45,999 nt of DNA from Nemertoderma westbladi (taxonomy: Eukaryota; Animalia; Xenacoelomorpha). Shown here piece after piece: positions 1 through 29,728 of this stretch (positions are counted from its first letter, which is position 1; every line of letters starts with the position of its first letter). The stretch is from positions 1-45,999 of the forward strand of contig JAUCBJ010002346.1 in NCBI GenBank assembly GCA_032718475.1, given 5' to 3'. The notes under the pieces were generated by a model. The model ran no database searches. It was not told the DNA's origin and worked only from the letters and a program-made list of their open reading frames with translations. Both the position numbers and the translations under genes were made by a program.

Positions 1-1916
1 TATTAAGGAGATAACACAATGTCAGAGTGAGAACAAAAAAATTAGATATGGTATCAATATATTACCATGAAGATTACTAGAAGTGATGAATTTTATTAAA
101 AACATTCACTTATATATATAAATTTGTGATGTGGCATAGTCAACGAAGAAGAGATGGTACGTGTCATAATCATCGACGAATAAGAAAAGAGATGGAGTGC
201 AACGTGGATGAATGGTTGGTTGTCTGAATAGGAAATACGTGAAAGAATATGAATCATAGGGTTGTGTGTGTAATAATCAATAATTATTATAATAAAAACG
301 TGCAGTATATAATGTTAGTGGTGGTAGCCTTTCAATATGACACAGATGCTGCGGGATTGGTTAGGTTGAGTAACTACTATGCAAATGTTGTTTGTATACG
401 TGTAGCCGGGACGTGGATTGGTGACAGCCGTGGTGGAGTTGGCAATCAATATAATATCTGCTGTAGTTGGTGGCCACGTTGTCAGCATATACAGTATACA
501 GTGGTTGGTTGGTTGCGTGAATAGGAAATAACTATGGAAATGTTCGTATACGTGTAGCCGGAAACGTGGTGGATTGGTAGGTTGCTTGGTTGAATGGATT
601 GGTGACAGCCGTCGAAGAGTTGGCGATCGATTCGATATAATAGGGTAGTGTGGGGCTAGCCACACGATGAGAGGTTTGGGTACGCGAAGATGAATATGCT
701 ATGGTTGGTTGATGCAACGACGCGAACCAATACTGACGGGAGGTAACAGCTGTAGGAGTAAGGAGGGCATCGCGAGGTTAGGCTACGCGTAGGTGATAGG
801 CAGCGATTGGCTGAAGGCAACGACGCGAATCAATATTGATGGTGACAGATGGTCATTAAACACCTCGATTTAGCACCGGAATTTGGCATTTTTTAATTGC
901 CTCCGAGATGTGGCCCGTAGCCCAGGCTAGGGAGGAGATAGCCGAGAACTATGCTTCTCCTACTACTTACCAGGGACCCAGCTCTTTATATCAGACTCAG
1001 ACTCTAACTTCCTAATTTATATCTTCAGCAATCAGTCCCAGCCCAAGCTTTTCCAGTGCACAGCCCAATCAGGCCTATTAGCTAACCCGCCATTGCAGCA
1101 TTGTCTATACCTATAAATGTGATAGATACCCGGTAGGCTTCCCTACATAGTTTGTTGTACAGTATAGCAGTACATAAGAAATTAAGATGATACCTGAAAT
1201 GAATGAATGAAATGAATATTTAATTTCGCGACAATTTTAATCAATAATTTCGGGGATTTACTTATAGCCATGCAACGCGTGGCTAATTTTATCTAAAAAT
1301 TGGTACCCAGTGTTATTTTTTTGTGCTCTTTCTATTTTCGACTGCTTTCGGTTGTGTTGCTCTTGAAGTACCTTCTCATTATGTGTGAAACTTGAAATCA
1401 ACAGTATAATACTGTATGTTTGAAACTTAAAAAATATAAATATTAAAATTTATTATTTCCATATTAGATATTCAAGATAATAATTCACAAAAATGTTTTG
1501 AAAAATCGAAACACTGGCATATAAACCATTTTATTGGTATGAAAGTAAGTGAAGAAACTTAAAAATGTACCATTATTAGATTGTATAGACATACTAACCT
1601 TATAATTAAATAGTAATTCATCATAATTATTATTATTACTATTATGTGCGCAAAAGAAAACAATAATACTCGCGCATTCCCTCGCAGTCGAGTTATTTAT
1701 ATAGAGTACGAAGATTTCTGAGTTTAAACATTTCAAAGTAATTGCGCGACATGCATTTGCTGCCAGTGTTGTAAAAGCATGAAATACCTATACAACAAGA
1801 AGTTATCATAAAACAAAAACATGATTGTGTCAAGTTTGTGGGATGCTTCCCAAAACCCAGATGTTAGTTGCTGTAAATAATTCACCTATTCATTAATTAA
1901 TTTCACAACCTTACTT

Positions 1917-1942
1917 CCCCCCCCCCCCCCCCCCCCCCCCCC
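1917..1942 (+). repeat. Poly-C tract (26 nt)
   Basis: Seen directly. Confidence 0.9.
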
Positions 1943-2069
1943 TTTGCGATTTCACTCTTCGTAGCGTCATTTCCTGGATTGACCTCTACAGAATGCCTTC
2001 CGCAGCCGGGCTAAACATACAGATCAGATCACCTGACGACTGTCGACAGCTGATTTCTGGTTGCATGTA

Positions 2070-2620
2070 ATGTGGGGCGAGCCACGCAGTCAGTGCGAGC
2101 CTTAGTGCACAATTACAATTAGTAAATAGGGCAAAATTTCATATTCGTCTGTCTGTCTGTCCATCTGTCTGTAATGAAAAATTCATTCGTAAGTAACTTT
2201 TGAATCGTTTAACCATTTTCAACCAAATTTTGTATGGGCATACTAGATAAAAAGTTCCAATATTTTTGAAAGTTACGGGTGAATACCGCCTCTCGAACTT
2301 TTGACTCCAGATCAAATCGAACTTGCTCAAGTTCGCGTGCTGCGCGACGCCCCACGAACGTGTGTAGGACTGTATGCAAACATTGTTTAGAGTTACATTC
2401 ATTCCCACATTCTGCCCGAGCCCGCATTCTTTCATGGTAGTTTCTTGGCTTGTCATCCTTCTTAATCTGCATTTTTAATCTAAAAATGACTGCGGAGAGG
2501 AGATACATGCTGTACAGAAAAATGTTTAAACAAATTAATTTCCGTCACTATGTTTGCACTGCACGTCATAGTATCATCATCCTATCACGTGGGGTTGAAA
2601 GTACAATTACAGTAGGCCTA
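2070..2620. mobile_element. Probable solitary DINE/Helentron-like element of another family (boundaries approximate)
   Basis: (GTCT)n at 2147-2171 followed by the core-like aaccattttcaaccaaattttgtatg. Confidence 0.45.
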
Positions 2621-2703
2621 CAACATTATTACTAACCTGTATAGCAATCTTAGACCAGTAGACTATTGCACTCCGGACATTGAGACCATGACAAAGTACA
2701 AGT

Positions 2704-2730
2704 TTACGTCATCACAGCTCTCTATATAAA
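2704..2730 (+). promoter_or_regulatory. CRE/ATF-like site (TTACGTCA) followed by TATA box (TATATAAA); possible upstream perilipin promoter
   Basis: Motifs seen directly at 2704-2711 and 2723-2730; function inferred only. Confidence 0.3.
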
Positions 2731-2873
2731 GGGAGTTCATACGATAATCGTACACCCTCTTTGTGACCTAATTAAGTTTCAGTAAATTTCAACTACTGAC
2801 CTACAGGTACAGTAATTAGGCCTACTTATTTATTATTTACCTTACAGCCTTACTGTAGCAGTAGATAGCCAGA

Positions 2874-3838
2874 CCGGTGTCACAAGGAAATCAGCCCCCC
2901 CCCCTAGAATATGCCCCCCGCCCCCGGGGCATTATTTCCTAGGATATTATGTCCCCCCGGGCAATTTTTCCTAGGAAATTTAGCCCGGGGGGGCATTTTC
3001 TCCTTAGGAAATAATGCCTCCCCTCAGGAAAATTAGCCCCCCTCAAAAGTCTGAAAACTGGTACGATACCGGTACCGGTCTGCTGGTAGCCACTTTTAAT
3101 CTACCAACTGCAGAACTTGTAATAGTTGGACTGTTGTAAGAATAGTACGGTGCCGGTCTGCCGGTAGGTAAGCAGGTAAGGCAGTAAGGGATGTAGAACA
3201 GCATACTGAAGTATCATAAGTCAGTAGGCTACTGTACAGCTGTAGTAAGTACTGGTATAACAGCAGTGCGAGTGTGTGGTGTTGTGTGGGCGCCGAGCAG
3301 CTCCAAGCTTTTTTAAGTCTGTAACCTGCTCCTTTCCCTGATTTGGTAAAGTGATTGTTTATTGTTTTGGTTAGAAAATCCCGCCTCTGTAACCTGCTCC
3401 TTTCTCTCAATTGGTAATGTTATCGTTTATTGTTTTGGTTAGAAAATCCCGTCTCTGTAACCTGCTCCTTTCCCTGATTTGCTAAAGTGACTGTTTATTG
3501 TTTTGGTTAGAAAATCCCGCCTCTGTAACCTGCTCCTTTCCCTCAATTAGTTAAATGATCGTTTATTGTTTTGGTTAGAAAGGCCTGCCTCTGTAACCTG
3601 CTCCTTTCCTTCATTTGGTAAAGTGACTGTTTACCGGTATTGTTTTGTATAATTTTTGTAAGTTTTAGTAGTAATAAGTTTTCTTTATTGTATAATTCAG
3701 GGGGGGGGGGGCATAATTTCCTAAGGGGGGGCATTTTTTTCCTAGGGAAATTTGCCCGGGGGGGCATTTTTTCCTAGGAAAATATGCCCCCCGGGCACAT
3801 TTCCCGGGGGGGGGGGGCATATTTTCCTGTTACACCGG
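2874..3838. mobile_element. MITE / non-autonomous DNA transposon with imperfect TIRs
   Basis: Left end CCGGTGTCACAAGGAAAT versus reverse complement of right end CCGGTGTAACAGGAAAAT. Both ends have subterminal ttcctagg/gccccc repeats. No clear TSD. Confidence 0.75.
3319..3633 (+). repeat. 68-bp tandem repeat, ~4.6 copies, inside the MITE
   Basis: ctgtaacctgctccttt starts at 3319, 3387, 3455, 3523 and 3591. Confidence 0.92.
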
Positions 3839-5776
3839 TACCTCAAACTTCCAATAATATTCTGTAGGCCTGATTCTTAATCCTGCAATCAGGTACCTGG
3901 GTACCGTATCGGTAAAATCCATTCTGCTCATCTCAAAGCTAACTCAGTACTCAGTAACTGCAACTTCTAACAGTCTAAGACTGAAGACTACGACTACAGT
4001 ACTACTGTACTACTGCTGTAGGCCTACTGTGCGAAGAAAGAACCGTGCACCCGTGACGCATACATCTGTAAATACAGAAATACCGACTGACCGATACGTC
4101 TACGAAAACTTGCTCCTTACCCATTTACCTCCGGCTCCGCCAGCCCCAGGCACCGCACCACCAGCTGACAGGCTGACCAGCCACCACAAAGGAACACTAC
4201 AAAGGAACGGCAAACTGTGAGTTTATTTTGAATCTTTAGCTGTTTAGCAGTTTAGTGCTTTACCGGGTCTGCTTTAGCTGTTTAGCCTAAACTTCTAAAT
4301 TATACCGGTCAGCCGGCAGCCACAGCCTGTAGTAGGCTTAGGTACGGTCTGTAGGACTATCTGAAACTAAAATGCATTTACAGCATTGCTGTTGTTCGCA
4401 GCTTGTGGCAGTGTGGCTTGGCTGCTCCTGCTAGCAGTGTTACAGTGCTAGGGGGTGTGGGTGGGTGTACCATGCAGCCATGTACTATCATATATATTAC
4501 AGTACAGCAGTATTGATTGAAACCACATGCCCTGATCAGCTGATGCCAGGCTGCCAGGTTGCTTGATGTCGTATACAGGTATATAATATATATTGCAGAG
4601 TGGATGCAGGGATGGTTAGATTGTGTCAGACTCAGACTGTATCAGTGTGTGGTAGGCCGGTAGGCCTACGATATAATGATTAGATGATACGACTTCATGT
4701 ACTACCCTGCTACTGTGCTACCACAGTACCACCGCACACCGCCACTGCTTAACGCTAACTATGTATCTATCTATCTATGCTAACTAGGGGCCTACCTGCA
4801 TATATATCTGTATTATCAGATTATAGGCCTATATCTGTGTCTATAGGCTTATACAATATTACAATATACATAAATCGTAAATACAGAAATACAAAGTAGT
4901 AGCCCTGCGCAAAGTTCAATATAACCGGCATCGGTGTGGTGATTGATTGCCAGTAACCGTGTTTTATTGCATTATGCACTATTGCACTATCATCCACTAG
5001 GCGTACCACTACACTACTTGCAACTGGAGATTATCTGCAATCGCGCAGTCTTATTTATTTATTACTGTATTATAGTCCTACATATTTCATTTATTAATAC
5101 AGTAATAGTTCGCTTATATTGGAGTCGGGAGTCGGATTATGTCTTCACGCGAAACTAAACTAACCGGTAACATTTACTGTCCATTAAATTTTATTTTGTA
5201 TGTTATTAAGTTGTTTGTCTGTGTATAGTGTTTGCGCTCAGTTAATGTTTGTTGTAGCAGGGTGGAGGAAATGATTACCTCTCATTACTTACATCACTGT
5301 TCCATTCTGCAAGTCTCGACCGAGTCTTGCAGAGTATTACAGATTACAGTATTATAGAGGTGGTAGGTGAACCTATGGATATATTACATATTTTTTATGT
5401 CAGGGTAGGGCAGAAGGAACAAGCAGCAAATTTGTCCCGACTATATTATTTCAGAAACCTTTTTATCGTGCATCTGCTGCCCCTCACCGAGGATGAAATT
5501 GGGATTTTGGTACAATATGTAACATGTCCGAACCTCAATTTCGAAAAGTTTTTTAGTTCTGCCTTGCTTCAGATTCAGAACCTATTTATGATTTTGGCTT
5601 CCTGGTCAGGGACACTCACCCTGTCCAGTAACTCATTCAGCCTTCACGTGAAGATTGTCAATACAATATAGCAATTTGCAATAGGCTATAGGATAGCTTA
5701 GACTTAGACATAGGGTTGCCTTCATGAGACTCGTGGTTAAGTTGGCTAAGTTTAGGTTTTAGGTTATGTTAGAATC

Positions 5777-5821
5777 GTTAGCATGGAGTGGGTGAGTACT
5801 ACTCACCCACTCCATGCTAAC
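5777..5821. repeat. Perfect 22-bp-arm palindrome, 1-nt spacer (centre 5799)
   Basis: gttagcatggagtgggtgagta C tactcacccactccatgctaac. Confidence 0.95.
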
Positions 5822-6232
5822 CTGTAGGGTGTAGGCATATGAGAAAATGCACTCATGTGGATGAAATACATAGAAAGTATAGCTATTAGACCCCCTAATT
5901 CTATCTAAACGCGATGTTAGTAATTATTCGACGCCTAATTCCATATATAGGTATATTGTTGAATTATAACAACACCCAGATTAATCTTCCTTGGTTAGGT
6001 TAAACTTATGTTAGGCACCTACTCAGTGAGTAGGTGCCTAACATAAGTTTAACCTAACCAAGGAAGATTAATCTGGGTGTTGTTATAATTCAACAATATA
6101 CCTATATATGGAATTAGGCGTCGAATAATTACTAACATCGCGTTTAGATAGAATTAGGGGGTCTAATAGCTATACTTTCTATGTATTTCATCCACATGAG
6201 TGCATTTTCTCATATGCCTACACCCTACAGGT
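5820..6232. repeat. Perfect palindrome, 206-bp arms, 1-nt spacer (centre 6026)
   Basis: acctgtagggtgtaggc...cctactca G tgagtagg...gcctacaccctacaggt. Confidence 0.95.
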
Positions 6233-6491: not shown

Positions 6492-7829
6492 ATGCCAGCG
6501 AGTTTACATGAACTCGAGCCAGTAGAGGAGGTTGATATGGGGGACACTAAACCGTGGACAGCGGAATCCCTTAATCAGGTAGCCCAGTGGCCGTTGGTAT
6601 CGTCTGGTTGGAGTCGCTTGTGGGATGTGTACGCGAGCACGAAGGAGTACAATCAGATGACGCAACTAGCTCTGGGATCAGTGGAGAAGTCCTTGAGTTC
6701 AGTGGCCAATCGCGCCACTCCCTACATGGACACGTTGGCGCCGCATCTCAGCAGAGCGGACCACTTTGTGTGCGGAAAGTTGGAAAACATAGAGGAGAGA
6801 ATCCCCATGGTTAAACGCGATCCCAAGGAAGTTGTCGCGGAGGTAGGCGCCGAGATATCGGCTCAAAAACAACGGCTAGTGGATGGGGTGGAAGCGGGGA
6901 GGGAGGCGATAACACAACGGGTCAACCGGAACAAACAGCTGCTGGTGGATAACCGTGACAGAGTGAACCACATGGTGATGGGGTATCTGGATGGGGCGAT
7001 CAGTAAGGCCGAGTCCGTGTTGGACTACTGGCTGCCGGAGCCGGAGGAGGATGGGGTAGATGCCGGGAGAGTGAAGGAGATTGTTGGGATCGTCGAGGAA
7101 GTTGATCCGGTTGCGATTCGCGTTCGTCGTCTCGGTAGCTCGGCGCGCTCTCGTGCCTATAAACACACGCAGAGGCGGTTGTACGCGATGCGAAATCGGG
7201 CGAAGCACGCCGTGGATAAGTTGCAGTACGTGGTAGTCGCTGTTGATTACTATAAGGGGGAGGCCCAAGGTCTGCAGCAATCCATGTCTGACCGCGCTCA
7301 TGGCTTGCAGCAATCCATGTGCGACCATGCTCAGGGTCTGCAGCAGTCCATGTGCGACCGTTTGGGCGCCCCCATCGACCCTACGGGGCTCCAACTCGCT
7401 CGCAACATGGCCCGGCAGCTGCGCGACTCCGCCACCGCACTGTTGGAGTACGCTCCACCGGGGCTCCGCTCCGGGCTGGAGCTGAGTCGGGACTACGCGG
7501 AGGGGTTGTATGCCGCGCTCCCGGGCTCCGGGCTCCTCTCGGCCCAGCAGCTGCTCGACATCCGACGCGGGATCCCGGCTGTTCGTTCCGCCGTCTACCA
7601 GCTCAGCGACGCGTTGCTCAACTCGTGGCTCGTCCAGCGGGTTTTGCCCCAGGTCGAGGTGGACCGCTTGGATCCCGAGCTAGCTCGGATGAGTTCTTCG
7701 GAAGAGGAAACCTCCGACAACGAGGTCCTCCGCTGCGCTAATCCTGGAACCCACAACGAACTCATCGTTTCCTTCGGTTCCAACGATGTTGTGTCCTCTT
7801 TCAGTTCGACGATGGACGATGAACATTAA
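6492..7829 (+). CDS. Perilipin-family (PAT) lipid droplet protein, perilipin-2-like, single coding exon, 445 aa
   Basis: N-terminus SLNQVAQWPLVSSGWSRLWDVYASTKE...ADHFVCGKLENIEERIP matches the PAT domain pattern (RVxxLPLVSS...Y..TK...AC..LD.IEE.LP). It also has the SESVLDYWLP-type motif and a helical C-terminal half. GC-rich ORF preceded by a good acceptor (ttttcttctaatttcAG, ending 6441). Confidence 0.9.
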   Translation: MPASLHELEPVEEVDMGDTKPWTAESLNQVAQWPLVSSGWSRLWDVYASTKEYNQMTQLALGSVEKSLSSVANRATPYMDTLAPHLSRADHFVCGKLENIEERIPMVKRDPKEVVAEVGAEISAQKQRLVDGVEAGREAITQRVNRNKQLLVDNRDRVNHMVMGYLDGAISKAESVLDYWLPEPEEDGVDAGRVKEIVGIVEEVDPVAIRVRRLGSSARSRAYKHTQRRLYAMRNRAKHAVDKLQYVVVAVDYYKGEAQGLQQSMSDRAHGLQQSMCDHAQGLQQSMCDRLGAPIDPTGLQLARNMARQLRDSATALLEYAPPGLRSGLELSRDYAEGLYAALPGSGLLSAQQLLDIRRGIPAVRSAVYQLSDALLNSWLVQRVLPQVEVDRLDPELARMSSSEEETSDNEVLRCANPGTHNELIVSFGSNDVVSSFSSTMDDEH

Positions 7830-8520: not shown

Positions 8521-8687
8521 TCGAGGTTTGATTTCACCCCGTTCCTCCATTAAACGTTGTAGGGATCGCGTTGTAACATGACTTCCCAGGATCTGTTCCT
8601 TGCTTATATAAATATCGTAAGTTAAGTTCAAACGATCGCCCAATTCCTTTAGTAAATCGAAGCAAAACCCAGAGCAGCAGGCGTCGG
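8521..8687 (-). CDS. grin1: GluN1-like S1 exon, variant B (ADACCSGFCFDLLKELGDRLNLTYDIYISKEQILGSHVTTRSLQRLMEERGEIKPR)
   Basis: Bounded by tttcttaCAG and GTAGGT, 167 nt, open, phase 1 to 0. Second copy of CCxGxCxDLL...TYD. Confidence 0.82.
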
Positions 8688-9491
8688 CTGTAAGAAATAT
8701 ACTGCGATAGGTAATAATTATGTGGGAGTCTGTCTGAAGTGTTAGTTATGTAGGTAATAATTATTCCAATAGACCCAGGATTGCGTGTGGCTGCATGAAA
8801 TAAACACTAATTAATTATTAATGTAATGCATAATTAATTAATTAATACTATATAAGGTCAATCATGTTAGTCGTAATAAATCAACCAAAGATAACATTTA
8901 AAAGCAATAAAATAGATTTTATTTCCAGTCAACCTTAAGGCGCCATATCTTAAGAAAAATATTTCAAGACCTGGAGATGAATTGAGAAAAAATAGGTTAA
9001 TATACCTAGAACCACATCACTGTAGATATAATGTTGGAGATGAAGTCGGAAGACAATTAGCAGAAAAATACTCAGAAGCTAGTTGATGCGCATTAGGTTA
9101 TGGAGCTGCACAATACGCATAATGTTTGTGTCGTCAAGTCATTTCGCGCGCCCATATTGTACAGGGTGTGTTCAGTCATTTCCAATGCGTTCTATAGCTA
9201 CTTCTAGAACGCAATGATTATTAGCCAATCCGGAAATTTATATAAAACTTAATTCAGCTGTTATTAAATATTATGTTATCTTATAATCTTTGTTTGGTAA
9301 TTAATACATAATGTAGAACCAAACGAAAATTCCGTTACAACATCCAAAATTTTTGGAAATTTAGGATTTCATCATTTTTTACTTTGATATATTTTCAAAC
9401 TCAAACAAAAATGTAGTGTCAATGACTGAGCAGATCTCTTACAATGTGGGCGGGTAGAATGGCTGTCTTAAGGTAGACAAGGCGCCCCTAC

Positions 9492-9613
9492 CAATTTTGA
9501 GGAGCCCACTGTACCATCAGCGGCTATCCAGATATCGTAGGTTAATTTAAACTTTTTGGCTATGACGTCCAGTAGGTCCACACAATATCCAGTACAACAG
9601 TACGTGTTCATAT
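9492..9613 (-). CDS. grin1: GluN1-like S1 exon, variant A (DMNTYCCTGYCVDLLDVIAKKFKLTYDIWIAADGTVGSSKL)
   Basis: Bounded by CAG and GTAGGG, 122 nt, phase 1 to 0. Contains the NMDA hallmark CCxGxCxDLL...TY. Confidence 0.9.
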
Positions 9614-11650: not shown

Positions 11651-14600
11651 CTGTGGAGGAAAATGTGTAGTGAGTAATGTAGGCCTAATGTGAAATTAAT
11701 ACAATATCAAATCCGCATATTTCAAAAATTAAAAAATTGACAGACACGCTGACAATAAATACTAGAAATATGAACTATATCCAACAATTCTCCGAAAATC
11801 GATATTTTAAGTATTTGTATAAAAGTATTTATTTTTTTGCTTCAAAGTATTATTTTATTTTAAATTAAAATAAATTAATTCATTTTTCATTCATTACATT
11901 AAATTTCAGAGTTAAATTAAGTATAGCTAGCCTTTAGAATTATTTGCATTTAACTAATAATATTTTGAAAAGAATAACGTAGACCCTACAAGCTGACATC
12001 AGAATGTACCGTTTATCTTGTGTTACTATTAAACATGTGAATAAATTAAAAAACAAAATTCAATGCAACTAAAAAAACTTATACAATATGAATAATATAT
12101 TTTCTTTAAAATATCCCATTTATTGTCCGCAAAAGTACGGACAATAAAGACTTAAATGTCCGCATTTGCGGACAATAAAGTAATTATTCAATCAATCTTC
12201 CAAAACTTCGGACAATAAAGTAATTAGCAAGTCGTTAGACTTGATTACTGTAAGAATTGTTGACTGACTGACTGGCTGGCTGGCTGGCTGACTGGCTGGC
12301 TGGCTGGCTGGCTGATCTACAGCCAAAACTACTCTAACGATTTTGATGAAATTTTCACAGCATCTAGATACCGCGATTCTAAGGTCCCTGGCATGATCGG
12401 CTACTCCGTCCATAGCCTCTGGGCTCGAAAAATAGAGATAAACGAAAAAAACGCCATAGGCGCAATGGTAAAATAACACCCATGACAGCTGGTGTCCTGA
12501 TGAAAAATGGCTTATGTAATGCATTTCTACACAAGGCTTAGTAATAAATCGATGAGGTTGCCAAGAGTATTATACTTAGTACACCCATACTGTTTGTTTA
12601 GGCCCTGCACTCTCTGTCAAAGCAAATATTAACTGGTTGATTTAGTTTGTGGTTCTACACAGGCTTAGTATAAATCGATGAGGCTGCCAACTGGTTGGTT
12701 TAGTTTGCAATCTATTACCGCCTCAGCTGAATAACTCTTCCCCCTGCTGAATGACTATTAGGTATACAGTGTATCGGCTACATTATGCCAACATTAATAC
12801 TGTGGAGGCTGTATGCTTATAAGGCGGAATGTTTACTCAGCCTCATACTGATACTCTTTAAGGCTTACACTAACATTATAGTTTGAAATATAAAAATAAC
12901 TGCTTATTATCTGTATTGGGTTAATCACGGTGGCATTCAAAATGTTTTGTTAGGTGAATGACATTTAGTGGCTAAGATTATGCTCTGTCAGATTCCCTTC
13001 ACACCATAGGCAAACATTGTTGAGGCTGAGGGAATTTAATTTAGTTTACTCTACTGAGTCATTCAGCTGAATGGATTTGAGCAATTGCCAAATTACAGAG
13101 TGGGATCTCTCTCTGACCATAGATAAATAACACTTCCCTTCTGAACAAAGGTAAACATTGTTGAGGGAACTTACCTTTGATTGACGACTTCCGACTTGCT
13201 TAACGGCGTCTTGACGCCGTCTCTAGTTAGCAAGTCGTTAGACTTGATTACTGTAAGAATTGTTGACTGACTGACTGGCTGGCTGGCTGGCTGACTGGCT
13301 GGCTGATCTACAGCCAAAACTACTCTAACGATTTTGATGAAATTTTCACAGCATCTAGATACCGCGATTCTAAGGTCCCTGGCATGATCGGCTACTCCGT
13401 CCATAGCCTCTGGGCTCGAAAAATAGAGATAAACGAAAAAACGCCATAGGCGCAATGGTAAAATAACACCAATGACAGCTGGTGTCCTGATGAAAAATGG
13501 CTTATGTAATGCATTTCTACACAAGGCTTAGTAATAAATCGATGAGGTTGCCAAGATTATTATACTTAGTACACCCATACTGTTTGTTTAGGCCCTAGGA
13601 CACTCTGTCAAAGCAAATATTAACTGGTTGATTTAGTTTGTGGTTCTACACAGGCTTAGTATAAATCGGTGAGGCTGCCAACTGGTTGGTTTAGTTTGCA
13701 ATCTATTACCGCCTCAGCTGAATAACTCTTCCCCCTGCTGAATGACTGTTAGGTACAGGTTATTGGCTACATTAATGCCAACATTAATACAGTGGAAGCT
13801 GTATGCTTATAAGGTGGAATGTTTACTCAGCCTTATACTGATACTCTGTAAGGTTAAGACTAACATTATAGTTTGAAATATAAAAATCACTTATTATTAT
13901 CTGTATTGGGTTAATAATCACTGTGGCATTCAAAATGTTTTATAGGTGATTGACATTTAGTGCAAGCTGAATGACTGTTAGTTACAGAGTACTACAGTAC
14001 TGCACTCTTATTTTATTTTTAAATCTTTCGTCCAACATTAATACTTTGGAGGTTGTATGCTTATAAGGCGAATGTTTACTCAGCTTCATACTGATACACT
14101 GTAAGGCTAACACTAACGTTATAGTTTAACACATAAAAATCACTGCTTATTATCTGTATCAGGTTACATACTGTGGCATTCAAAATGTTTAAATGTTTTA
14201 TAGGTGATTGATATTTAGTGCAAGCTGAATGACTGTAGGTTACAGAGTACTATTGCACTGTATTTTATTTTTAAATCTTTTGGCCAACATTAATACTGTG
14301 GAGGCTGTATGCTTATAAGGCGGAATGTTTACTCAGCCTCATACTGATACTCTGTAAGGCTTACACTAACATTATTGTTTGAAATATAAAAATAACTGCT
14401 TATTATCTGTATTGGGTTAATCACTGTGGCATTCAAAATGTTTTGTTAGGTGAATGACATTTAGTGGCTAAGATTATTCTCTGTCAGATTCCCTTCACAC
14501 CATAGGCAAACATTGTTGAGGCTGAGGGAATTTACTTTAGTTTACTCTACTGAGTCATTCAGCTGAATGGATTTGAGCAATTGCCAAATTACAGAGTGGG

Positions 14601-17007
14601 ATCTCTCTCTGACCATAGATAAATAACACTTCCCTTCTGAACAAAGGTAAACATTGTTGAGGGAACTTACCTTTGATTGACGACTTCCGACTTGCTTAAC
14701 GGCGTCTTGACGCCGTCTCTAGTTAGGAACCGAGAGGTTCATTACTGTAAGAATTGTTGGCTGATTGATTGACTGGCTGGCTGACTGACTGATCTACAGC
14801 CAAAACTACTCTAACGATTTTGATGAAATTTTCACAGTGGCTTGATACCGCGATTCTAAGGTCCCTGGTATGTTCCGCTATTTTGTCCATGAGCCGTGGG
14901 CTCGAAAAATAGACATAAACGAAAAAACGCCATAGGCGCAATGGTAAAAAACACCAATAACAGCTGGTGTCGTGATGAAAAATGGCTTATGTAATGCATT
15001 TCTACAGAAGGCTTAGTAATAAATCGATGAGGTTGCCAAGATTATTATACTCAGTACACCCATACTGTTTGTATAGGCCACCACTCTCTGTCAAAGCAAA
15101 CATTAACGGGTTGGTTTAGTTTGAAATCTAATATCGCCTCAGCTGAATTACTCTTCCCAATGCAATCTATGGGAATATCTCACTCTGCTAATGTAAGCTG
15201 AATGACTTAAGTACACAGTGTGTTGGCTACATTAATGCCAACATTATTGCAAAATGTTTTATTGTTTGATTACTCTCTGTCAGTCTCCCCTTCAGAACAT
15301 TGTATAGGAAATTTACTTTAGTTTACTCTACTGTGCCATTCAGCTGAAGGGATTTGAGCGATTGCCAAGTTACAGAGTTGGATCATTATCTGACCATAGG
15401 CAAAGGCAAATCTTGTTAAAATATACTTTTTCCATGTTTTTTTTTCTGACCAAAAATTTCAAAAAAAAATTTTTGTAGCCAGTACTGCCAATCGATTCGC
15501 CATCAAAAATAACGCAAAAAATTTTTTTTGCAAAATTTTAAATTACTGTAAATTTTTGGCGACTGGGGGGGGTCAATTTTTTTCGATCCGCTATAACTCC
15601 GGAACGCTTTGTCCAAATTCGATGGGGTTTTCATTTTTCAACTTAATTCGATGTCCTCTTTCAGCCTATCCATGTTTCGAAACCCCAAACAACGCCGTTC
15701 AAAAATAAATTTTTTCTAGTTCTAGAATTTTACAAATTTCAAAAAAGTTGCAGTATTTTATTAACGCCTTTACGGAATTCGATAGCGTTTTCGATTTTTA
15801 TATTAAACGCAATATCCTGAATCTCACTAGCCTAGTTTCGCGTCACCAATGCCAAGACTTCATACTTTTTGAGGAAAATTTTTCTAGAATAATTTTTATT
15901 TAATTACATTTATCGCGATTTCTTATTACTGGATGCACATGAATTGATGGAGTTTTCAATTTCTTAACTAAACACGATATCGCGCATCGCACCAGCGTGG
16001 TTTCGAAATTCCAAAACGAGGTCTTCACTAGTTGCAGGTCGATTTTGTTCTAGAATGGAGCAACTAATAATAGATCGAATTTATTAATAATTATTGTATG
16101 AAATATGATTGTATTTTTACATAATTATTAGTTCTATACTAATTCTCGTTGTCTCTTTTATTTAAAATAAAAAGTCGGTTCCTTATCGGGCCGCTAGGCC
16201 CGTCACTAGTTAGGAACCGAGAGGTTCATTACTGTAAGAATTGTTTACTGATTGATTGACTGGCTGGCTGGCTGACTGACTGACTGATCTACAGCCAAAA
16301 CTACTCTAACGATTTTGATGAAATTTTCACAGCGGCTGGATACCGTGATTCTAAGGTCCCTTGTATGTTCCGCTATTTCGTCCATGAGCCGTGGGCTCGA
16401 AAAATAGACATAAACGAAAAAACGCCATAGGCGCAATGGTAAAATAACACCAATAACAGCTGGTGTCGTGATGAAAAATGGCTTATGTAATGGATTTCTA
16501 CACAAGGCTTATTATAAATCGATGAGGTTGCCAAGATTATTGTACTTAGTACACCCATACTGTTTGTTTAGGCCCTAGGACACTCTGTCAAAGCAAATAT
16601 TAACTGGTTGGTTTAGTTAGAAATCTATTATCGCCTCAGCTGAATTACTCTTCCCAATGCATTCTATGAGAATATCTCACTCTGCTAATAATGTAAGCTG
16701 AATGACTTAAGTACACAGTGTGTTGGCTACATTAATGCCAACAATATTGCAAAATGTTTTATTGTTGGATTACTCTCTGTCAGTCTCCCCTTCAGAACAT
16801 TGTATAGGGAATTTACTTTAGTTTACTCTACTGTGCTATTCAGCTGAATGGATTTGAGCGATTGCCAAGTTACAGAGTTGGATCATTCTCTGACCATAGG
16901 CAAAAGACATCAAATGTTTTTAAAAAGATACTTTTTCCATGTTTTTTTTTTCTGACCAAAAATTTTTATTAGGAACCGAGAGGTTCATTACTGTAAGAAT
17001 TGCTCGA

Positions 17008-17046
<39 letters not shown>

Positions 17047-18464
17047 TGACTGATCTACAGCCAAAACTACTCTAACGATTTTGATGAAATTTTCACAGCG
17101 GCTGGCTGACCTGATTCTAAGGTCCCTGGCATGATCGGCTACTCCGTCCATAGCCTCTGGGCTCGAAAAATAGAGATAAACGAAAAAACGCCATAGGCGC
17201 AATGGTAAAATAACACCAATGACAGCTGGTGTCCTGATGAAAAATGGCTTATGTAATGCATTTCTACACAAGGCTTAGTAATAAATCGATGAGGTTGCCA
17301 AGATTATTATACTTAGTACACCCATACTGTTTGTTTAGGCCCTACCAACCACTCTCTGCAAAGCAAACATTAACTCGTTGGTTTAGTTTGAAATCTAGTA
17401 TTGCCTCAGCTGAATAACTCTTCCCAATGCATTCTAGGGGAGTATAAAAGTTTCTCCCTCTGCTAATGTAAGCTGAATGACTTAAGTACACAGTGTGTTG
17501 GCTACATTAATGCCAACAATATTGCAAAATGTTTTATTGTTGGATTACTCTCTGTCAGTCTCCCCTTCAGAACATTGTATAGGGAATTTACTTTAGTTTA
17601 CTCTACTGTGCTATTCAGCTGAATGGATTTGAGCGATTGCCAAGTTACAGAGTTGGATCATTCTCTGACCATAGGCAAAAGACATCAAATGTTTTTAAAA
17701 AGATACTTTTTCCATGTTTTTTTTTTCTGACCAAAAATTTCAAAAAAAAATTTTTCGTAGCCAGTACTGCCAATCGATTCGCCATCAAAAATAACGCAAA
17801 AAATTTTTTTTGCAAAATTTTAAATTACTGTAAATTTTTGGCGACTGGGGGGGTCAATTTTTTTCGATCCGCTATAACTCCGGAATGCTTTGTCCAAATT
17901 CGATGGGGTTTTTATTTTTCAATTTAATTCGATGTCCTCTTTCAGCCTATCCATGTTTCGAAACCCCAAACAGCGCCGTTCAAAATTTAATTTTTTCTAG
18001 ATTCTAGAATTTTACAAATTTCAAAAAAGTTGCGGTATTTTATTAACGCCTTTACAGAATTCGATAGCGATCAACTTAATTCGATGTCCTCTTTCAGCCT
18101 ATCCATGTTTCGAAACCCCAAACAGCGCCGTTCAAAAATTATTTTTTTCTAGTTCTAGAATTTTACAAATTTCAAAAAAGTTGCAGTATTTTCATTAACA
18201 CCTTTATGGAATTCGATAGCGTTTTCGATTTTTATATTAAACGCAATATCCTGAATCTCACTAGCCTAGTTTCGCGTCACCAATGCCAAGACTTCATACT
18301 TTTTGAGGAAAATTTTTCTAGAATAATTTTTATTTAATTACATTTATCGCGATTTCTTATTACTGGTTGCACATGAATTGATGGATTTTTCAATTTATTA
18401 ACTAAACACGATATCGCGCATCGCACCAGCGTGGTTTCGAAATTCCAAAACGAGGTCTTCACCC

Positions 18465-19232
18465 GAATGGAGCCGAGTTGAGCCCAATCAAGCCGAGCAA
18501 GCCAGACTGAGCCGAGTCAAGCCCAATCGAGTCGAGTCGAGCCCAATAGAGCCGAGTTGAGCCCAATCAATCCTAGTCGAGCCCAATTGAGCGGGACCAA
18601 GCCAAATCGAGCCCAATCGTGCCAGACTGGGCCAATTTGAGCCAAATCGAGCCGAGTCAAGCCCAATCAATCCCAATCAATTGAGTCGAATCGAGCCCAA
18701 TTGAGCCAAGTCGAGCCGGACCGAGCCGAGTCAAACCCAATCGAGCCGATTGAGCCGAATAAAGCTGAGTCGACTCAGACCGAGCCGAGCAGAACCCAAT
18801 CGAGCCGAGTTGAGCCGTGTCACGCCAAATTGAGCCGGACTGAGTCGAGTCGAGACCAATCAAGCCGAGTCGAGCCCAATCGAGCTGAGTCGAGCCGGAC
18901 AGAACCGAGTTGAGCATAATCAAGCCGAGTCGAGCCAGACTGAGCCGAGTTAAGCCCAATCGAATCGAGTCAAGCTCAATAGAGCCGAGTCGAGCCCAAT
19001 CAAGCCTAGTCGAGCCCAATTGAGCCAAGTTGAGCCAAATCGAGCCGAGTCAACCCCAATCAATCCCAATCGAGCCGATTCGAGCCCAACCGAGCTGAGT
19101 CGAGACGAATCGAGCCGATTGAGCTGAGTCGAGTCGAGCCCAATCAAGCCGAGTCGAGCCCAATCGAGCCAAACCGAGCCGATCAAGCCAAGTCGAACTG
19201 AATCGGGCCCAATCATGCCAGACCGAGCCGAG
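18465..19232 (+). repeat. Degenerate GAGCC-based satellite (gagcc/gagtc/caatc) in unit 5
   Basis: 5-bp periodicity with recurring 20-mer gagccgagtcgagcccaatc. Confidence 0.9.
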
Positions 19233-21121
19233 CTCGTTGTCTCTTTTATTTGAAATGAAAAGTCGGTTCCTTATCGGGCCGCTAGGCCCGTCACTAGTTA
19301 GCAAGTCGTTAGACTTGATTACTGTAAGAATTGTTGACTGACTGACTGGCTGGCTGGCTGGCTGACTGGCTGGCTGGCTGGCTGGCTGATCTACAGCCAA
19401 AACTACTCTAACGATTTTGATGAAATTTTCACAGCATCTAGATACCGCGATTCTAAGGTCCCTGGCATGATCGGCTACTCCGTCCATAGCCTCTGGGCTC
19501 GAAAAATAGAGATAAACGAAAAAAACGCCATAGGCGCAATGGTAAAATAACACCCATGACAGCTGGTGTCCTGATGAAAAATGGCTTATGTAATGCATTT
19601 CTACACAAGGCTTAGTAATAAATCGATGAGGTTGCCAAGAGTATTATACTTAGTACACCCATACTGTTTGTTTAGGCCCTGCACTCTCTGTCAAAGCAAA
19701 TATTAACTGGTTGATTTAGTTTGTGGTTCTACACAGGCTTAGTATAAATCGATGAGGCTGCCAACTGGTTGGTTTAGTTTGCAATCTATTACCGCCTCAG
19801 CTGAATAACTCTTCCCCCTGCTGAATGACTATTAGGTATACAGTGTATCGGCTACATTATGCCAACATTAATACTGTGGAGGCTGTATGCTTATAAGGCG
19901 GAATGTTTACTCAGCCTCATACTGATACTCTTTAAGGCTTACACTAACATTATAGTTTGAAATATAAAAATAACTGCTTATTATCTGTATTGGGTTAATC
20001 ACGGTGGCATTCAAAATGTTTTGTTAGGTGAATGACATTTAGTGGCTAAGATTATGCTCTGTCAGATTCCCTTCACACCATAGGCAAACATTGTTGAGGC
20101 TGAGGGAATTTAATTTAGTTTACTCTACTGAGTCATTCAGCTGAATGGATTTGAGCAATTGCCAAATTACAGAGTGGGATCTCTCTCTGACCATAGATAA
20201 ATAACACTTCCCTTCTGAACAAAGGTAAACATTGTTGAGGGAACTTACCTTTGATTGACGACTTCCGACTTGCTTAACGGCGTCTTGACGCCGTCTCTAG
20301 TTAGGAACCGAGAGGTTCATTACTGTAAGAATTGCTCGTGGCTGACTGGCTGGCTGATCTACAGCCAAAACTACTCTAACGATTTTGATGAAATTTTCAC
20401 AGCGGCTAGATACCGCGATTCTAAGGTCCCTGGTATGTTCCGCTATTTCGTCCATGAGCCGTGGGCTCGAAAAATAGACATAAACGAAAAAACGCCATAG
20501 GCGCAATGATAAAAATACCAGCTGGCACTCATGAAAAATGGATAGAGATGGCCTAGTAATGCTATTCTATAGGAATGGCCACCTAACAAGGAAATGCTTT
20601 CTCTGCCAAGTATTCTCCTCACTCTACAACTCAGACAGTAAGCAAACAAAAGCCGTGGGATTCTAATGTATTACATCATAAGCTGATTGCTCTCCCAATA
20701 GCCCTCACACACTCACTGAATCGAATGAAATCGTATATCTATTAGCTTAATGCGAATAGCTGGTAGCTGAATGCCATTTTAGTTATTGTGTACTGTTGAT
20801 TGCAGAGTTGACTGCTATGTTGTATGTATTTAATTAAAATAATTTTCGTAGAGGGAAGTTAATTTGGGATTACTTTCTATCAGATGTAAGCAAAGCTGTT
20901 CAATGGGGTGGGTCATGGGACCCAAATATAGTACATTATGCATGGCAAACATTAATAAAATCATTCAGTCAACCTGGAGGGTATTTGCTTAGTTAACTCT
21001 ACTGTGCGAAAAACGAATTTTTAATGTTACCCATACTTCAGGTGAATGAATTTTTAGATATTTGTACTGGAGGCAAGGATTTCTGATATAATTAAATATA
21101 TATTTCGATATTATGTAGTTG

Positions 21122-21622
21122 CGCCCTTCTAGCAGCACGTGAGATAATCAAGTAATAGACATAATATTTGACTTTGTCCCTTCGAGCAGCACGTGAGTTT
21201 TGCTTTGACCCTTCGATATATGTATTTGCGCCCTTCGAGCAGCACGTGAATTACATCAAATAATAGACACATTGTTTGACTTTGTCCCTTCGAGCAGCAC
21301 GTGAGTTTTGCTTTGACACTTCGATATATGTATTTGCGCCCTTCGAGCAGCACGTGAGATAATCAAGTAATAGACATAATGTTTGACTTTGTCCCTTCGA
21401 GCAGCACGTGAGTTTTGCTTTGACCCTTCGATATATGTATTTGCGCCCTTCGAGCAGCACGTGAATTACATCAAATAATAGACACATTGTTTGACTTTGT
21501 CCCTTCGAGCAGCACGTGAGTTTTGCTTTGACACTTCGATATATGTATTTGCGCCCTTCGAGCAGCACGTGAGTTTTGCTTTGACACTTCGATATATGTA
21601 TTTGCGCCCTTCGAGCAGCACG
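21122..21622 (+). repeat. 53/55-bp alternating minisatellite with invariant cccttcgagcagcacgtg core (also ~24616-24925 and ~26830-27062)
   Basis: About ten cores in unit 7, separated by two alternating spacer types. Confidence 0.9.
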
Positions 21623-21636
21623 GGGAGTCGACTCAG

Positions 21637-22196
21637 ACCGAGCCGAGCCGAGCCGAGCCGAGCCGAGCCGAGCCGAGCCGAGCCGAGCCGAACCGAGCCG
21701 AGCCGAGCCGAACCTAGCCGAGCCGAGCCAAACCGAACCGAGCCGAACCGAGCCGTGCCGAGCCGAGCCGAGCCGAGCCAAGCCGAGCCGAGCCGAACCG
21801 TGCCGAGCCGAGCCGAGCCGAACCGAGCCGAGCCGAGCCGAGCCGAGCCGAGCCGAGCCGAGCCGAGCCGAGCCGAGCCGAGCCGAACCGCGCCGCGCCG
21901 AGCCGAGCCGAGCCGAGCCGAGCCGAGCCGAGCCGAGCCGTGCCGAACCGAGCCGAGCCGAGCCGAGCCGAACCGAGCCGAGCCGAGCCGAGCGGAGCCG
22001 AACCGAGCCGAGCCGAGCCGAGCCAAGCCGAGCCGAGCCGAGCCGAACCGAGCCGAGCCGTGCCGAGCCGAGCCGAGCCGAGCCGAGCCGAGCCGAGCCG
22101 AGCCGAGCCGAGCCGAGCCGAGCCGAGCCGTGCCGAGCCGAACCGAGCCGAGCCGAGCCGAGCCGAGCCGAGCCGAATCGTGCAAGACCGAGCCGA
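21637..22196 (+). repeat. (GAGCC)n microsatellite, nearly pure, in array unit 7
   Basis: Seen directly; source of the spurious AEPSR/LGSAR ORFs. Confidence 0.95.
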
Positions 22197-24930
22197 GCTC
22201 GTTGTCTCTTTTATTTGAAATAAAAAGTCGGTTCCTTATCGGGCCGCTAGGCCCGTCACTAGTTAGGAACCGAGAGGTTCATTACTGTAAGAATTGTTTG
22301 CTGATTGATTGATTGACTGGCTAATCTACAGCCAAAACTACTCTAACGATTTTGATGAAATTTTCACAGCGGCTAGATACCGCGATTCTAAGGTCCCTGG
22401 TATGTTCCGCTATTTCGTCCATGAGCCGTGGGCTCGAAAAATAGACATAAACGAAAAAACGCCATAGGCGCAATGGTAAAATAACACAAATAACAGCTGG
22501 TGTCTTGATGAAAAATGGCTTATGTAATGGATTTCTACACAAGGCTTAGTATAAATCGATGAGGTTGCCAAGATTATTGTACTTAGTACACCCATACTGT
22601 TTGTTTAGGCCCTAGGACACTCTGTCAAAGCAAATATTAACTGGTTGGTTTAGTTTGAAATCTATTATCGCCTCAGCTGAATTACTCTTCCCAATGCAAT
22701 CTATGGGAATATCTCACTCTGCTAATGTAAGCTGAATGACTTAAGTACACAGTGTGTTGGCTACATTAATGCCAACATTATTGCAAAATGTTTTATTGTC
22801 AGTCTCCCCTTCAGAACATTGTATAGGGAATTTACTTTAGTTTACTCTACTGTGCCATTCAGCTGAATGGATTTGAGCGATTGCCAAGTTACAGAGTTGG
22901 ATCATTCTCTGACCATAGGCAAAGACATCAAATCTTTTTAAAAATATACTTTTTCCATGTTTTTTTTTCTGACCAATAATTTCAAAAAAAAATTTTTCGT
23001 AGGCAGTACTGCCAATCGATTCGCCATCAAAAATAACGCAAAAAATTTTTTTTGCAAAATTTTAAATTACTGTAAATTTTTGGCGACTGGGGGGGGGTCA
23101 ATTTTTTTCGATCCGCTATAACTCCGGAACGCTTTGTCCAAATTCGATGGGGTTTTCATTTTTCAACTTAATTCGATGTCCTCTTTCAGCCTATCCATGT
23201 TTCGAAACCCCAAACAGCGCCGTTCAAAAATTATTTTTTCCAGTTATAGAATTTTACAAATTTCAAAAAAGTTGCAGTATTTTATTAACGCCTTTACGGA
23301 ATTCGATAGCGTTTTCGATTTTTATATTAAACGCAATATCCTGAATCTCACTAGCCTAGTTTCGCGTCACCAACGCCAAGACTTCATACTTTTTGAGGAA
23401 AATTTTTCTAGAATAATTTTTATTTAATTACATTTATCGCGATTTCTTATTTACTTGCACATGAATTTACATGCACATTTACTTGCACTTATTAGCACAT
23501 GAATTGATGGAGTTTTCAATTTATTAACTAAACACGATATCGCGCATCGCACCAGCGTGGTTTCGAAATTCCAAAACGAGGTCTTCACTAGTTGCAGGTC
23601 GATTTTGTTCTAGAATTGAGCAACTAATAATGGATCGAATTTATTAATAATTATTGTATGAAATATGATTGTATTTTTAGATAATTATTAGTTCTATACT
23701 AATTCTCGTTGTCTCTTTTATTTAAAATAAAAAGTCGGTTCCTTATCGGGCCGCTAGGCCCGTCACTAGTTAGGAACCGAGAGGTTCATTACTGTAAGAA
23801 TTGTTGGCTGATTGATTGACTGGCTGGCTGGCTAATCTATAGCCAAAACTACTCTAACGATTTTGATGAAATTTTCACAGCGGCTGGATACCACGATTCG
23901 AAGGTCCCTGGTATGTTCCGCTATTTCGTCCATGAGCCTTGGGCTCGAAAAATAGACATAAACGAAAAAACGCCATAGGCGCAATGATAAAAACACCAGC
24001 TGGCACTCATGAAAAATGGATAGAGAAAGCCTAGTAATGCTATTCTATAGGAATGGCCACCTAACAAGGAAATGCTTTCTCTGCCAAGTATTATCCTCAC
24101 TCTACAACTCAGACAGTAAGCAAACAAAAGCCGTGGGATTCTAATGTATTACATCATAAGCTGATTGCTCTCCCAATAGCCCTCACACACTCACTGAATC
24201 GAATGAAATCGTATATCTATTAGCTTAATGCGAATAGCTGGTAAGCTGAATGCCATTTTAGTTATTGTGTACTGTTGATTGCAGAGTAGACTGCTATGTT
24301 GTATGTATTTAATTAAAATAATTTTCGTAGAGGGAAGTTAATTTGGGATTACTTTCTATCAGATGTAAGCAAAGCTGTTCAATGGGGTGGGTCATGGGAC
24401 CCAAATATAGTACATTATGCATGGCAAACATTAATAAAATCATTCAGTCAACCTGGACCGAGGGTATTTGCTTAGTTAACTCTACTGTGCGAAAAACGAA
24501 TTTATAATGTTACCCATACTTCAGGTGAATGAATTTTTAGATATTTGTACTGAAGGCAAGGATTTCTGATATAATTAAAATACAAGACAGGGGCTTGTTT
24601 CGATATATGTAGTTGCGCCCTTCTAGCAGCACGTGAGATAATCAAATAATAGACACAATGTTTGACTTTGTCCCTTCGAGCAGCACGTGAGTTTTGCTTT
24701 GACCCTTCGATATATGTATTTGCGCCCTTCGAGCAGCACGTGAATTACATCAAATAATAGACACATTGTTTGACTTTGTCCCTTCGAGCAGCACGTGAGT
24801 TTTGCTGTGACCCTTCGATATATGATGTTGCGCCCTTCGAGCAGCACGTGAGTTACAACAAATAATAGACACACTGTTTGACTTTATCCCTTCGAGCAGC
24901 ACATGAGTTTGACCCTTCCAGCAGCGTGTG

Positions 24931-25932
24931 TCAATCGAGCCGAATCATACCGATCGAGCCGAATAGAACCAATCGAAGCGATCAGGCCGAGTCAAGCCCA
25001 ATCGAGCCGAGTCAAGCCGAACAGAGCTGAGTTGAGCCCAATCAAGCCGAGCGAGCCAGACTGAGCCGAGTCAAGCCCAATCGAGTCGAGTCGAGCCCAA
25101 TAGAGCCGATTCGAGCCCAATCAATCCTAGTCGAGCCCAATTGAGCCGGACAGAGCCAAGTCGACCCCAATCGAGCCATACTGTACCAAGTTGAGTCCAA
25201 TCGAGCCGAGTCAAGCCCAATCAATCCCAATCGAGTCAGGACGAGCGGATTGAGCCGAATCGAGCCCAATTGAGCCAAGTCGAGTCGAGTCGAACCCAAT
25301 CGAGCCGATTGGGCCGAATCGAGCTGAGTCGACTCAGACCGAGCCGAGCCGAACCCAATCGAGCCGAGTCGAGCCGTGTCACTCCAAATTGAGCCGGACT
25401 GAGTCGAGTCGAGACCAATCAAGCCGAGTCGAGCCCAATCGAGCCGAGTCGAGCCCAATCGAGCCGAGTCGAGCCCAATCGAGCCGAGTCGAGCCAGACG
25501 GAGCCGAGTTGAGCTTAATCAAGCCGAGTCGAGCCAGACTGAGCCGAGTTAAGCCCAATCGATTCGAGTCGAGCCCAATAGAGCCGAATCGAGCCCAATC
25601 AAGCCTAGTCGAGCCCAATTGAGCCGGACCAAGCCCAGTCGAGTCGGACTGAGCCAAGTTGAGCCAAATCGAGCTGAGTCAAGCCCAATCAATCCCAATC
25701 GAGCCGTTTCGAGCCCAATCGACCCGAGTCGAGACCAATCGAGCCGAGTCGAGCCCAATTGAGCCAAGTCGAGCCAGACTGAGCTGAGTCGAACCCAATC
25801 AATCCGACTGAGCCGAATCGAGCTGAGTCGAGTCGAGCCCAATCAAGCCAAGTCGAGCCCAATCAAGCCAAACCGAGCCGATCAAGCCAAGTCGAACTGA
25901 ATCAAGCCCAATCATGCCAGACCGAGCCGAGC
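24931..25932 (+). repeat. Degenerate GAGCC-based satellite in unit 9
   Basis: Same pattern as 18465-19232. Confidence 0.9.
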
Positions 25933-27076
25933 TCGTTGTCTCTTTTATTTGAAATAAAAAGTCGGTTCCTTATCGGGCCGCTAGGCCCGTCACTAGTTAG
26001 GAACCGAGAGGTTCATTACTGTAAGAATTGCTCGTGGCTGGCTGGCTGGCTAATCTATAGCCAAAACTACTCTAACGATTTTGATGAAATTTTCACAGCG
26101 GCTAGATACCGCGATTCTAAGGTCCCTGGTATGTTCCGCTATTTCGTCCATGAGCCGTGGGCTCGAAAAATAGACATAAACGAAAAAACGCCATAGGCGC
26201 AATGATAAAAACACCAGCTGGCACTCATGAAAAATGGATAGAGATGGCCTAGTAATGCTATTCTATAGGAATGGCCACCTAACAAGGAAATGCTTTCTGT
26301 GCCAAGTATTATCCTCACTCTACAACTCAGACAGTAAGCAAACAAAAGCCGTGGGATTCTAATGTATTACATCATAAGCTGATTGCTCTCCCAATAGCCC
26401 TCACACACTCACTGAATCGAATGAAATCCTATATCTATTAGCTTAATGCGAATAGCTGGTAAGCTGAATGCCATTTTAGTTATTGTGTACTGTTGATTGC
26501 AGAGTTGACTGCTATGTTGTATGTATTTAATTAAAATAATTTTCGTAGAGGGAAGTTAATTTGGGATTACTTTCTATCAGATGTAAGCAAAGCTGTTCAA
26601 TGGGGTGGGTCATGGGACCCAAATACAGTACATTATGCATGGCAAACATTAATAAAATCATTCAGTCAACCTGGAGGGTATTTGCTTCGTTAACTCTACT
26701 GTGCGAAAAACGAATTCATAATGTTACCCATACTTCAGGTGAATGAATTTTTAGATATTTGTACTGAAGGCAAGGATTTCTGATATAATTAAAATACAAG
26801 ATAGGGGCTTGTTTCGATATATGTAGTTGCGCCCTTCTAGCAGCACGTGAGATAATCAAATAATAGACACAATGCTTGACTTTGTCCCTTCGAGCAGCAC
26901 GTGAGTTTTGCTTTGACCCTTCGATATATGTATTTGCACCCTTCGAGCAGCACGTGAATTACATCAAATAATATACACATTGTTTGACTTTGTCCCTTCG
27001 AGCAGCACGTGAGTTTTGCTTTGACCCTTCGATATATGTATTTGCGCCCTTCGAGCAGCACGGGGAGTCTACTCAG

Positions 27077-27440
27077 ACCGAGCCGAGCCGAGCCAAGCCA
27101 AGCCAAGCCGAGCCGAGCCAAGCCGAGCCGAGCCAAGCCGAGCCGAGCCGAGCCGAGCCGAGCCGAGCCGAGCCGAGCCGAGCCGAGCCGAGCCGAGCCG
27201 AGCCGAGCCGAGCCGAGCCGAGCCGATCCGAGCCGAGCCGAGCCGAACCGAGCCGAACCGAGCCGAGCCGAACCGAACCGAACCGAGCCGAGCCGAGCCG
27301 AGCCAAGCCGAGCCGAGCCGAACCGAGCCAAGCCGAACCGAGCCGAGCCGAGCCGAACCGAGCCGAGCCGAACCGAGCCGAGCCGAGCCGATCAAGCCAA
27401 GTCGAACTTAATCGTGCCCAATCGTGCAAGACCGAGCCGA
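27077..27440 (+). repeat. (GAGCC)n microsatellite in array unit 10
   Basis: Seen directly. Confidence 0.95.
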
Positions 27441-29588: not shown

Positions 29589-29728
29589 TACAGAAATGTG
29601 CTAAAAAATTTAATCTGTATTATATTACGCAGATCAAAGTTTATGGAATACGTATTTAATATAAAGTGTTTATTAGTCAAAGTTCACGTGTTTGAAAATG
29701 TAGGAGGGTCAAGCGAACTACTGTCATC

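Follow-up and report, generated by a model that had tools for sequence, protein, structure and literature searches.

Tandem copies of an S1 exon, candidates for one-at-a-time splicing, in a GluN1-like NMDA receptor gene of Nemertoderma westbladi

A 45,999-nt stretch of the Nemertoderma westbladi assembly GCA_032718475.1 (contig JAUCBJ010002346.1, positions 1 to 45,999; here called the window) carries part of a GluN1-like NMDA receptor gene in which one exon of the ligand-binding domain occurs in two adjacent, homologous copies, A and B. Based on the sequence of the locus, we think it probable that the copies are spliced one at a time, giving two subunits whose ligand-binding domains would differ in about 40 residues. 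The receptor exons and the features around the pair are as follows.

11650-11544, minus strand: exon e1, 107 nt, phase 1 to phase 0, AG/GT ends and open frame; amino-terminal domain (GluN1 profile positions 200-235, E 7.7e-6)
10911-10740, minus strand: exon e2, 172 nt; amino-terminal domain (profile positions 241-299, E 0.0023)
10221-9987, minus strand: exon e3, 235 nt; end of the amino-terminal domain and linker into S1 (profile positions 299-383)
9877-9727, minus strand: exon e4, 151 nt; start of S1, loop 1 and two cysteines; shared donor for A and B
9613-9492, minus strand: exon A, 122 nt, AG/GT ends; part of S1 reaching from the Cys-Cys pair to loop 2
9491-8688, minus strand: A-B intron, 804 nt, GT-AG
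8687-8521, minus strand: exon B, 167 nt, AG/GT ends; sister copy of A
8583-8521, minus strand: tail of B, 21 codons past the loop-2 Gly with no detected homology; its boundary is set by the putative donor at 8521/8520
8516-8329, no strand assigned: 19-nt minisatellite of about 10 copies, starting 4 nt past the end of B, inside the intron

Exons A (40 codons) and B (55 codons) both run from phase 1 to phase 0 and both have lengths of 3n+2, and the acceptor phases of both fit e4, which ends in phase 1. A sequence-only reading of this DNA had proposed the pair, and its coordinates, lengths of 122 and 167 nt, AG/GT ends, translations and phases were all reproduced here. The same reading held that including both copies or neither would shift the frame, and this was borne out: the chain of e1 to e4 followed by A and B meets its first stop at codon 274, and the chain lacking both ends in phase 1. 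Joined to A alone or to B alone, e1 to e4 give chains of 262 and 277 codons, respectively, each without a stop and ending in phase 0. Both exons matched Pfam family PF10613 (E 1.3e-6 and 7.7e-6, in both cases just short of the curated cut-off) and solved NMDA subunit structures (best E 5e-6 for A and 1e-4 for B), and they fall on the same GluN1 profile positions (424-461 for A, 426-465 for B). The splice sites of B are in line with those of the rest of the gene, with 11 pyrimidines in 17 positions at the acceptor (9 to 12 in the other exons) and 6 of 9 consensus matches at the donor (5 to 8 in the other exons); three AG sites lie between the best branch-point motif of B and its acceptor. A and B are adjacent, homologous, compatible in their splice sites, in the same frame and similar in length, the features expected of a mutually exclusive pair. 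Candidate pairs in a survey of human exons could differ by up to 20 amino acids (PMC5740500), and A and B differ by 15.

By its homology, the host gene is a fast-evolving GluN1-like NMDA receptor subunit. Searched against solved structures, e3 matched GluN1 chains best (top E 9.4e-9); among the best 60 of its 82 structure matches, 59 are named NR1, GluN1 or NMDA 1 and one is named "NMDA glutamate receptor subunit." The structure matches at the top for A, B and e3 are of the NMDA class only, and the amino-terminal domain and linker are closest to GluN1. A profile built from e3 and 14 of its 24 relatives led to three full-length proteins, two of them named NMDA subunit 1. Identity of e3 to full-length homologues is 29 to 36%, which makes it unusually divergent. 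The homology of e4 is weak (profile positions 383-409, E 1.3), and e4 alone gave no NMDA match among solved structures; its placement fits by frame and position. Word-index searches of longer proteins with exon B and with e3 returned nothing at an E value of ≤10, which is weak evidence. Among 26 GluN1-like loci examined, 10 have a GT four codons past the loop-2 Gly, exactly where A ends, and 7, read by eye, have a phase-1 acceptor before the Cys-Cys pair, as A does. Since e3 matches GluN1 best and the intron positions of A are shared with GluN1-like loci, we place the gene among the GluN1-like subunits and A in a conserved exon slot.

The two copies are likely old sisters, derived from one exon and kept by selection. 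A and B are identical at 14 of 32 residues, and the best identities of the two copies to other NMDA segments are 16/32 and 19/32, so that the distance between A and B is about that of either from other NMDA segments, or that between different NMDA subunits. In a tree with 62 other distinct segments, A and B nevertheless grouped together with support of 100/80 (33 columns, both on long branches, of 1.11 for A and 0.43 for B). They share a Leu where all 54 other ungapped segments have Phe, and an Ile at a position where only 1 of the 54 has Ile (the counts omit eight segments with gaps, and columns inside the search pattern are necessarily conserved).

Codon positions 1, 2 and 3 are identical between the copies in 21, 23 and 10 of 33 codons, and 11 of the 15 codons that encode the same residue differ silently. 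The Nei-Gojobori (NG86) estimates were a dN of 0.54 and a dS of 2.28, which is saturated, for a dN/dS of about 0.24; the other two methods gave no value. Against a profile of other NMDA segments, A scored 41.7 bits and B 40.4 bits. In simulations of neutral decay, the frame and splice sites of B survived in 33 to 59% of runs at 0.05 substitutions per site, in 5 to 14% at 0.2 and in 1 to 2% at 0.5, results that rule out a dead B over much of its divergence. B thus appears to have been under selection for most of its history; a recent silencing may have followed. The sequence-only reading suggested an old, selected duplication and listed dN/dS in related species among its checks. The value obtained here between the two copies, read with its saturated synonymous sites, agrees with that suggestion, as do the grouping of the copies as sisters and the state of B, which is no more decayed than A.

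The 3′ end of B is the least secure part of the exon model. Homology ends about 40 codons into the exon, and the tail beyond has an exon-like GC content of 0.46, versus 0.26 to 0.36 in the five introns of the gene. Other phase-0 GT sites lie nearby at 8578, 8512 and 8506, with 5 to 6 of 9 consensus matches, versus 6 of 9 for the site at 8521. As modeled, with the next exon absent from the window and the minisatellite at the donor of B, loop 2 of B is predicted to be 17 residues longer than that of A. A loop of such length has a precedent in a compact GluN1-like gene in another contig (locus L005, 924-1080), whose loop 2 has 29 residues versus 12 in two full-length references, indicating that a 17-residue extension is tolerated. 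In the tree, the S1 segment of that gene stands closer to A and B than any other row.

We compared the two copies at positions numbered as in GluN1; this numbering, presumed here, is anchored on GluN3A residue 605 (query residue 5 aligned with chain residue 575, ungapped). The Cys-Cys pair is kept in both A and B and the shared e4 has two cysteines, so the loop-1 disulfides are predicted to be able to form in both isoforms. At the position equivalent to F484, A has Val and B has Leu, in place of the Trp, Phe or Tyr found in all 54 other ungapped segments, counted as above; the aromatic residue that caps glycine in GluN1 is therefore present in neither copy. At positions 481 and 482, A has Asp-Gly and B has Glu-Gln, whereas Asp occupies the first position in 52 and Gly the second in 41 of the same 54 segments. 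D481 and K483 are described as glycine-site positions in the text consulted (PMC6685005).

The earlier proposal that the exons swap part of the agonist pocket therefore stands in part. As a swap at F484 it was overstated, since Val to Leu is a conservative change; the D481/G482 positions and loop 2 do differ. More striking than any swap at F484, in the predicted proteins, is the loss of the aromatic cap from both copies, and the differences that could matter are those at D481/G482 and in loop-2 length. With Asp-Gly gone and a longer loop 2, isoform B is predicted to depart from A in its sensitivity to agonists or in its contacts with other subunits. A bolder reading supposes a lineage-specific GluN1-like subunit that has rebuilt its co-agonist site, with the S1 splice switch toggling the need for co-agonist: A, with its Asp-Gly, would still respond to glycine or D-serine, and B, without Asp-Gly and with a long loop 2, would be insensitive or gated by another ligand. 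This reading strikes us as quite unlikely.

Only GluN1 profile positions of about 200 to 465, out of 885, are covered by the window. Searches with tblastn using three full-length proteins, and with two profiles, detected no exon in the window earlier than e1 or later than B: there was none in the 34 kb before e1, and the 8.5 kb after B contain neither the next ("WNG-type") exon nor any exon of the membrane domain. The introns visible in the gene are short (five, of 109 to 804 nt). The region encoded by the next exon was present in 65 of 80 NMDA-type loci that we surveyed, as a separate exon in 44; in those 44, that exon scored 57 to 162 bits and lay 54 to 3,657 nt away. The features flanking the receptor exons are listed here.

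5777-5821, no strand assigned: second hairpin, 45 nt, adjoining the 206-nt foldback
5820-6232, no strand assigned: foldback with perfect 206-nt arms and a 1-nt spacer; no other copy in the window
6492-7829, plus strand: intronless perilipin ORF of 445 amino acids (PF03036, E 4.3e-33), convergent with the receptor fragment
12200-27600, no strand assigned: repeat array of about 15 kb upstream of e1, with nested near-identical segments and short-unit microsatellites; 97% multi-copy in the window

If the receptor gene continues, the intron that follows B would enclose the perilipin ORF, which is 690 nt from B. This ORF contains a 33-nt internal repeat at 7272-7360 and is preceded by an acceptor-like site some 50 nt from its ATG. 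The foldback, centered at 6026, is possibly a foldback element or an assembly join, and a fault of assembly there could account for the missing receptor exons. The missing exons could be explained either by two very long introns with nested genes, by a wrong assembly join at the foldback, or by a gene that is a truncated duplicate.

Within the upstream array (12200-27600), no receptor exon was detected. One weak match to the GluN1 profile there (14326-14270, minus strand, E 3.4) falls within a repeat present in five copies, three codons after a stop, and was taken as chance. In translation, this segment and its four further copies give a short sequence like a conserved GluN1 amino-terminal motif, a likeness that is probably fortuitous, although the segment could be the relic of an amplified exon.

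Elsewhere in the window, none of the 16 open frames of positions 1-5700 matched a Pfam family at the curated cut-off, and these positions yielded no identifiable gene. An element bounded by inverted repeats at 2873-3839 surrounds a 68-nt tandem repeat of 4.6 copies (3318-3633). Two long open frames on the plus strand, at 29696-31804 and 32714-33325 (703 and 204 codons from stop to stop, with no Pfam match), are probably exons of one low-complexity protein. By eye, from their motifs, we take the region at about 35000-35900 (minus strand) to be a broken LINE-type reverse transcriptase fragment and that at about 41500-45999 (plus strand) to be a BEL/Pao-type LTR retrotransposon.

We propose that an old duplication of a single S1 exon within this lineage produced the tandem, intact copies A and B, and that the spliceosome would join e4 to one or the other. 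Whichever copy was chosen would then be joined to the same downstream exon, past a long intron holding the perilipin gene, and transcripts with both copies or neither, being shifted in frame, would be removed by nonsense-mediated decay. The Cys-Cys pair and the core of S1 would be retained in both isoforms; both would lack the glycine-capping aromatic residue and so would be expected to bind glycine weakly compared with an ordinary GluN1. The choice of B over A would change agonist sensitivity or subunit contacts and would not amount to a clean change of ligand.

As to how the copies might exclude each other, an A-B intron of 804 nt with GT-AG ends means that a steric block and U2/U12 incompatibility do not apply. 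Competing RNA pairing of the introns was no stronger than in shuffled sequences in any of four comparisons (of 30 shuffles, 17, 15, 30 and 3 equalled or exceeded the actual pairing in stability). This leaves frameshift with subsequent decay as the putative mechanism of exclusion. For human mutually exclusive clusters, the parts of the source consulted give exon lengths that are not multiples of three in 377 of 629 and propose decay of frame-shifted transcripts for most (PMC5740500).

Three other explanations bear on the same evidence. The pair may once have worked and B, or the whole six-exon locus, may now be silent, either as a recently decayed exon or as a truncated duplicate of a gene elsewhere. 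The lack of receptor exons upstream and downstream in the window would fit this, as would the position of the fragment between a repeat array of 15 kb and, 690 nt from B, a perilipin gene, the absence of the F484 aromatic residue from both copies and of Asp-Gly from B, and the minisatellite at the donor of B. We nonetheless consider silence unlikely, though well short of negligible, given that the ends of all six exons are canonical and their frames stay open over 262 to 277 codons, that B and A score alike against other NMDA segments, and that a fault of assembly at the foldback (6026) could account for the missing exons. Even if the locus is silent, both copies persisted in its parent gene over a long period. 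A second haplotype or other assembly artefact, or the leftover of a separate tandem paralogue, would account for B in another way, and the foldback and repeat array are indeed signs of rearrangement or misassembly in a region where A and B are as far apart as different NMDA subunits. That same distance, 14/32 identity with saturated silent sites, rules B out as an allele; no copy of e1 to e4 or of the flanking introns lies beside B, and the acceptor phase of B fits e4 exactly. We therefore regard a separate origin of B as very unlikely.

Still more improbable, in our judgment, is that B serves as a terminating exon, through read-through past a weak donor to a stop 18 codons on or through inclusion of A and B together, with a truncated or degraded product that lowers the receptor level. 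The frame of B does continue past 8521 to a stop inside the minisatellite, no downstream exon is seen in the window, and an AATAAA/ATTAAA motif lies at 7868 on the minus strand. Yet the donor of B is no weaker than that of A, and B keeps the S1 core residues and an excess of silent changes, for which a purely regulatory or truncating exon would have no need. We therefore continue with splicing of A or B, one at a time, as the preferred reading.

The pair looks specific to its lineage, based on a survey of other genes. Metagenome contigs were scanned with one peptide pattern, which gave 186 matches, of which 90 were confirmed and 80 loci were kept. A second copy of the S1 exon (at least 8 bits) was found in none of these 80 NMDA-type loci, 27 of which have at least 1 kb on both sides and none of which is from a close relative. 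One locus (L030) has, at 388-486, a weak match (15 bits) to GluN1 profile positions 602-634 upstream of the first detected exon of its gene, which is possibly a neighboring receptor gene or a duplicated piece. Two members of a Paramuricea cluster considered as S1 isoforms were rejected, as they differ only by three N-terminal residues.

The sequence-only reading knew of no described case of this kind. Our literature search, from which subscription journals were mostly absent, likewise found no description of a duplicated S1 exon in an NMDA receptor. GRIN1, GRIN2A, GRIN2B and GRIN3A have no entry in the part of the human survey's supplement that was covered (PMC5740500). NMDA classes are defined in PMC6307864, the main text of which does not contain the string "splic," and one Aplysia Grin1 splice variant is mentioned, with no position given in the text consulted, in PMC5225553. 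According to the portion of PMC3664776 consulted, GRIN1 variants come from exons 5, 21 and 22, and splicing changes receptor properties.

GRIN1 splicing as known so far leaves the ligand-binding domain untouched, and AMPA receptors tune theirs by flip/flop. If B is used, a flip/flop-like switch would have evolved independently in S1 of the obligatory NMDA subunit in this lineage. The pair would then serve as a natural experiment at positions 481-484 and in loop 2, where mutation alters glycine sensitivity in mammals. Its value depends on the use of B and on a functional difference between the isoforms.

Set beside known systems, the gene resembles the GluN1 class in its retained Cys-Cys pair, in having e3 closest to GluN1 and in the matching intron positions around A; it differs from that class in being more divergent and in having lost the F484 aromatic residue from both copies. 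Vertebrate GRIN1 belongs to the same subunit class, but its variation comes from cassette exons and alternative ends in the N- and C-terminal regions and not from duplicated either-or exons. The closest parallel is the flip/flop pair of the AMPA receptor genes GRIA1-4. There too an exon for the ligand-binding domain of an ionotropic glutamate receptor is duplicated in tandem, and the copies are mutually exclusive, as is probable for A and B. Flip/flop sits in S2, ahead of the last membrane helix. Its two copies have the same length and similar sequences, whereas A and B are identical at 14 of 32 residues and differ by 15 amino acids in length. The GRIA2 flip/flop exon, as given in the part of the survey consulted, has 115 nt and frame 2-0 and is, like A and B, not divisible by three (PMC5740500). 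Flip/flop is proven by RNA and function, whereas the either-or use of A and B is proposed from genomic sequence. With its place in S1 of a GluN1-like gene, and not in S2 of an AMPA-class gene, the A/B pair is like flip/flop and not a member of it.
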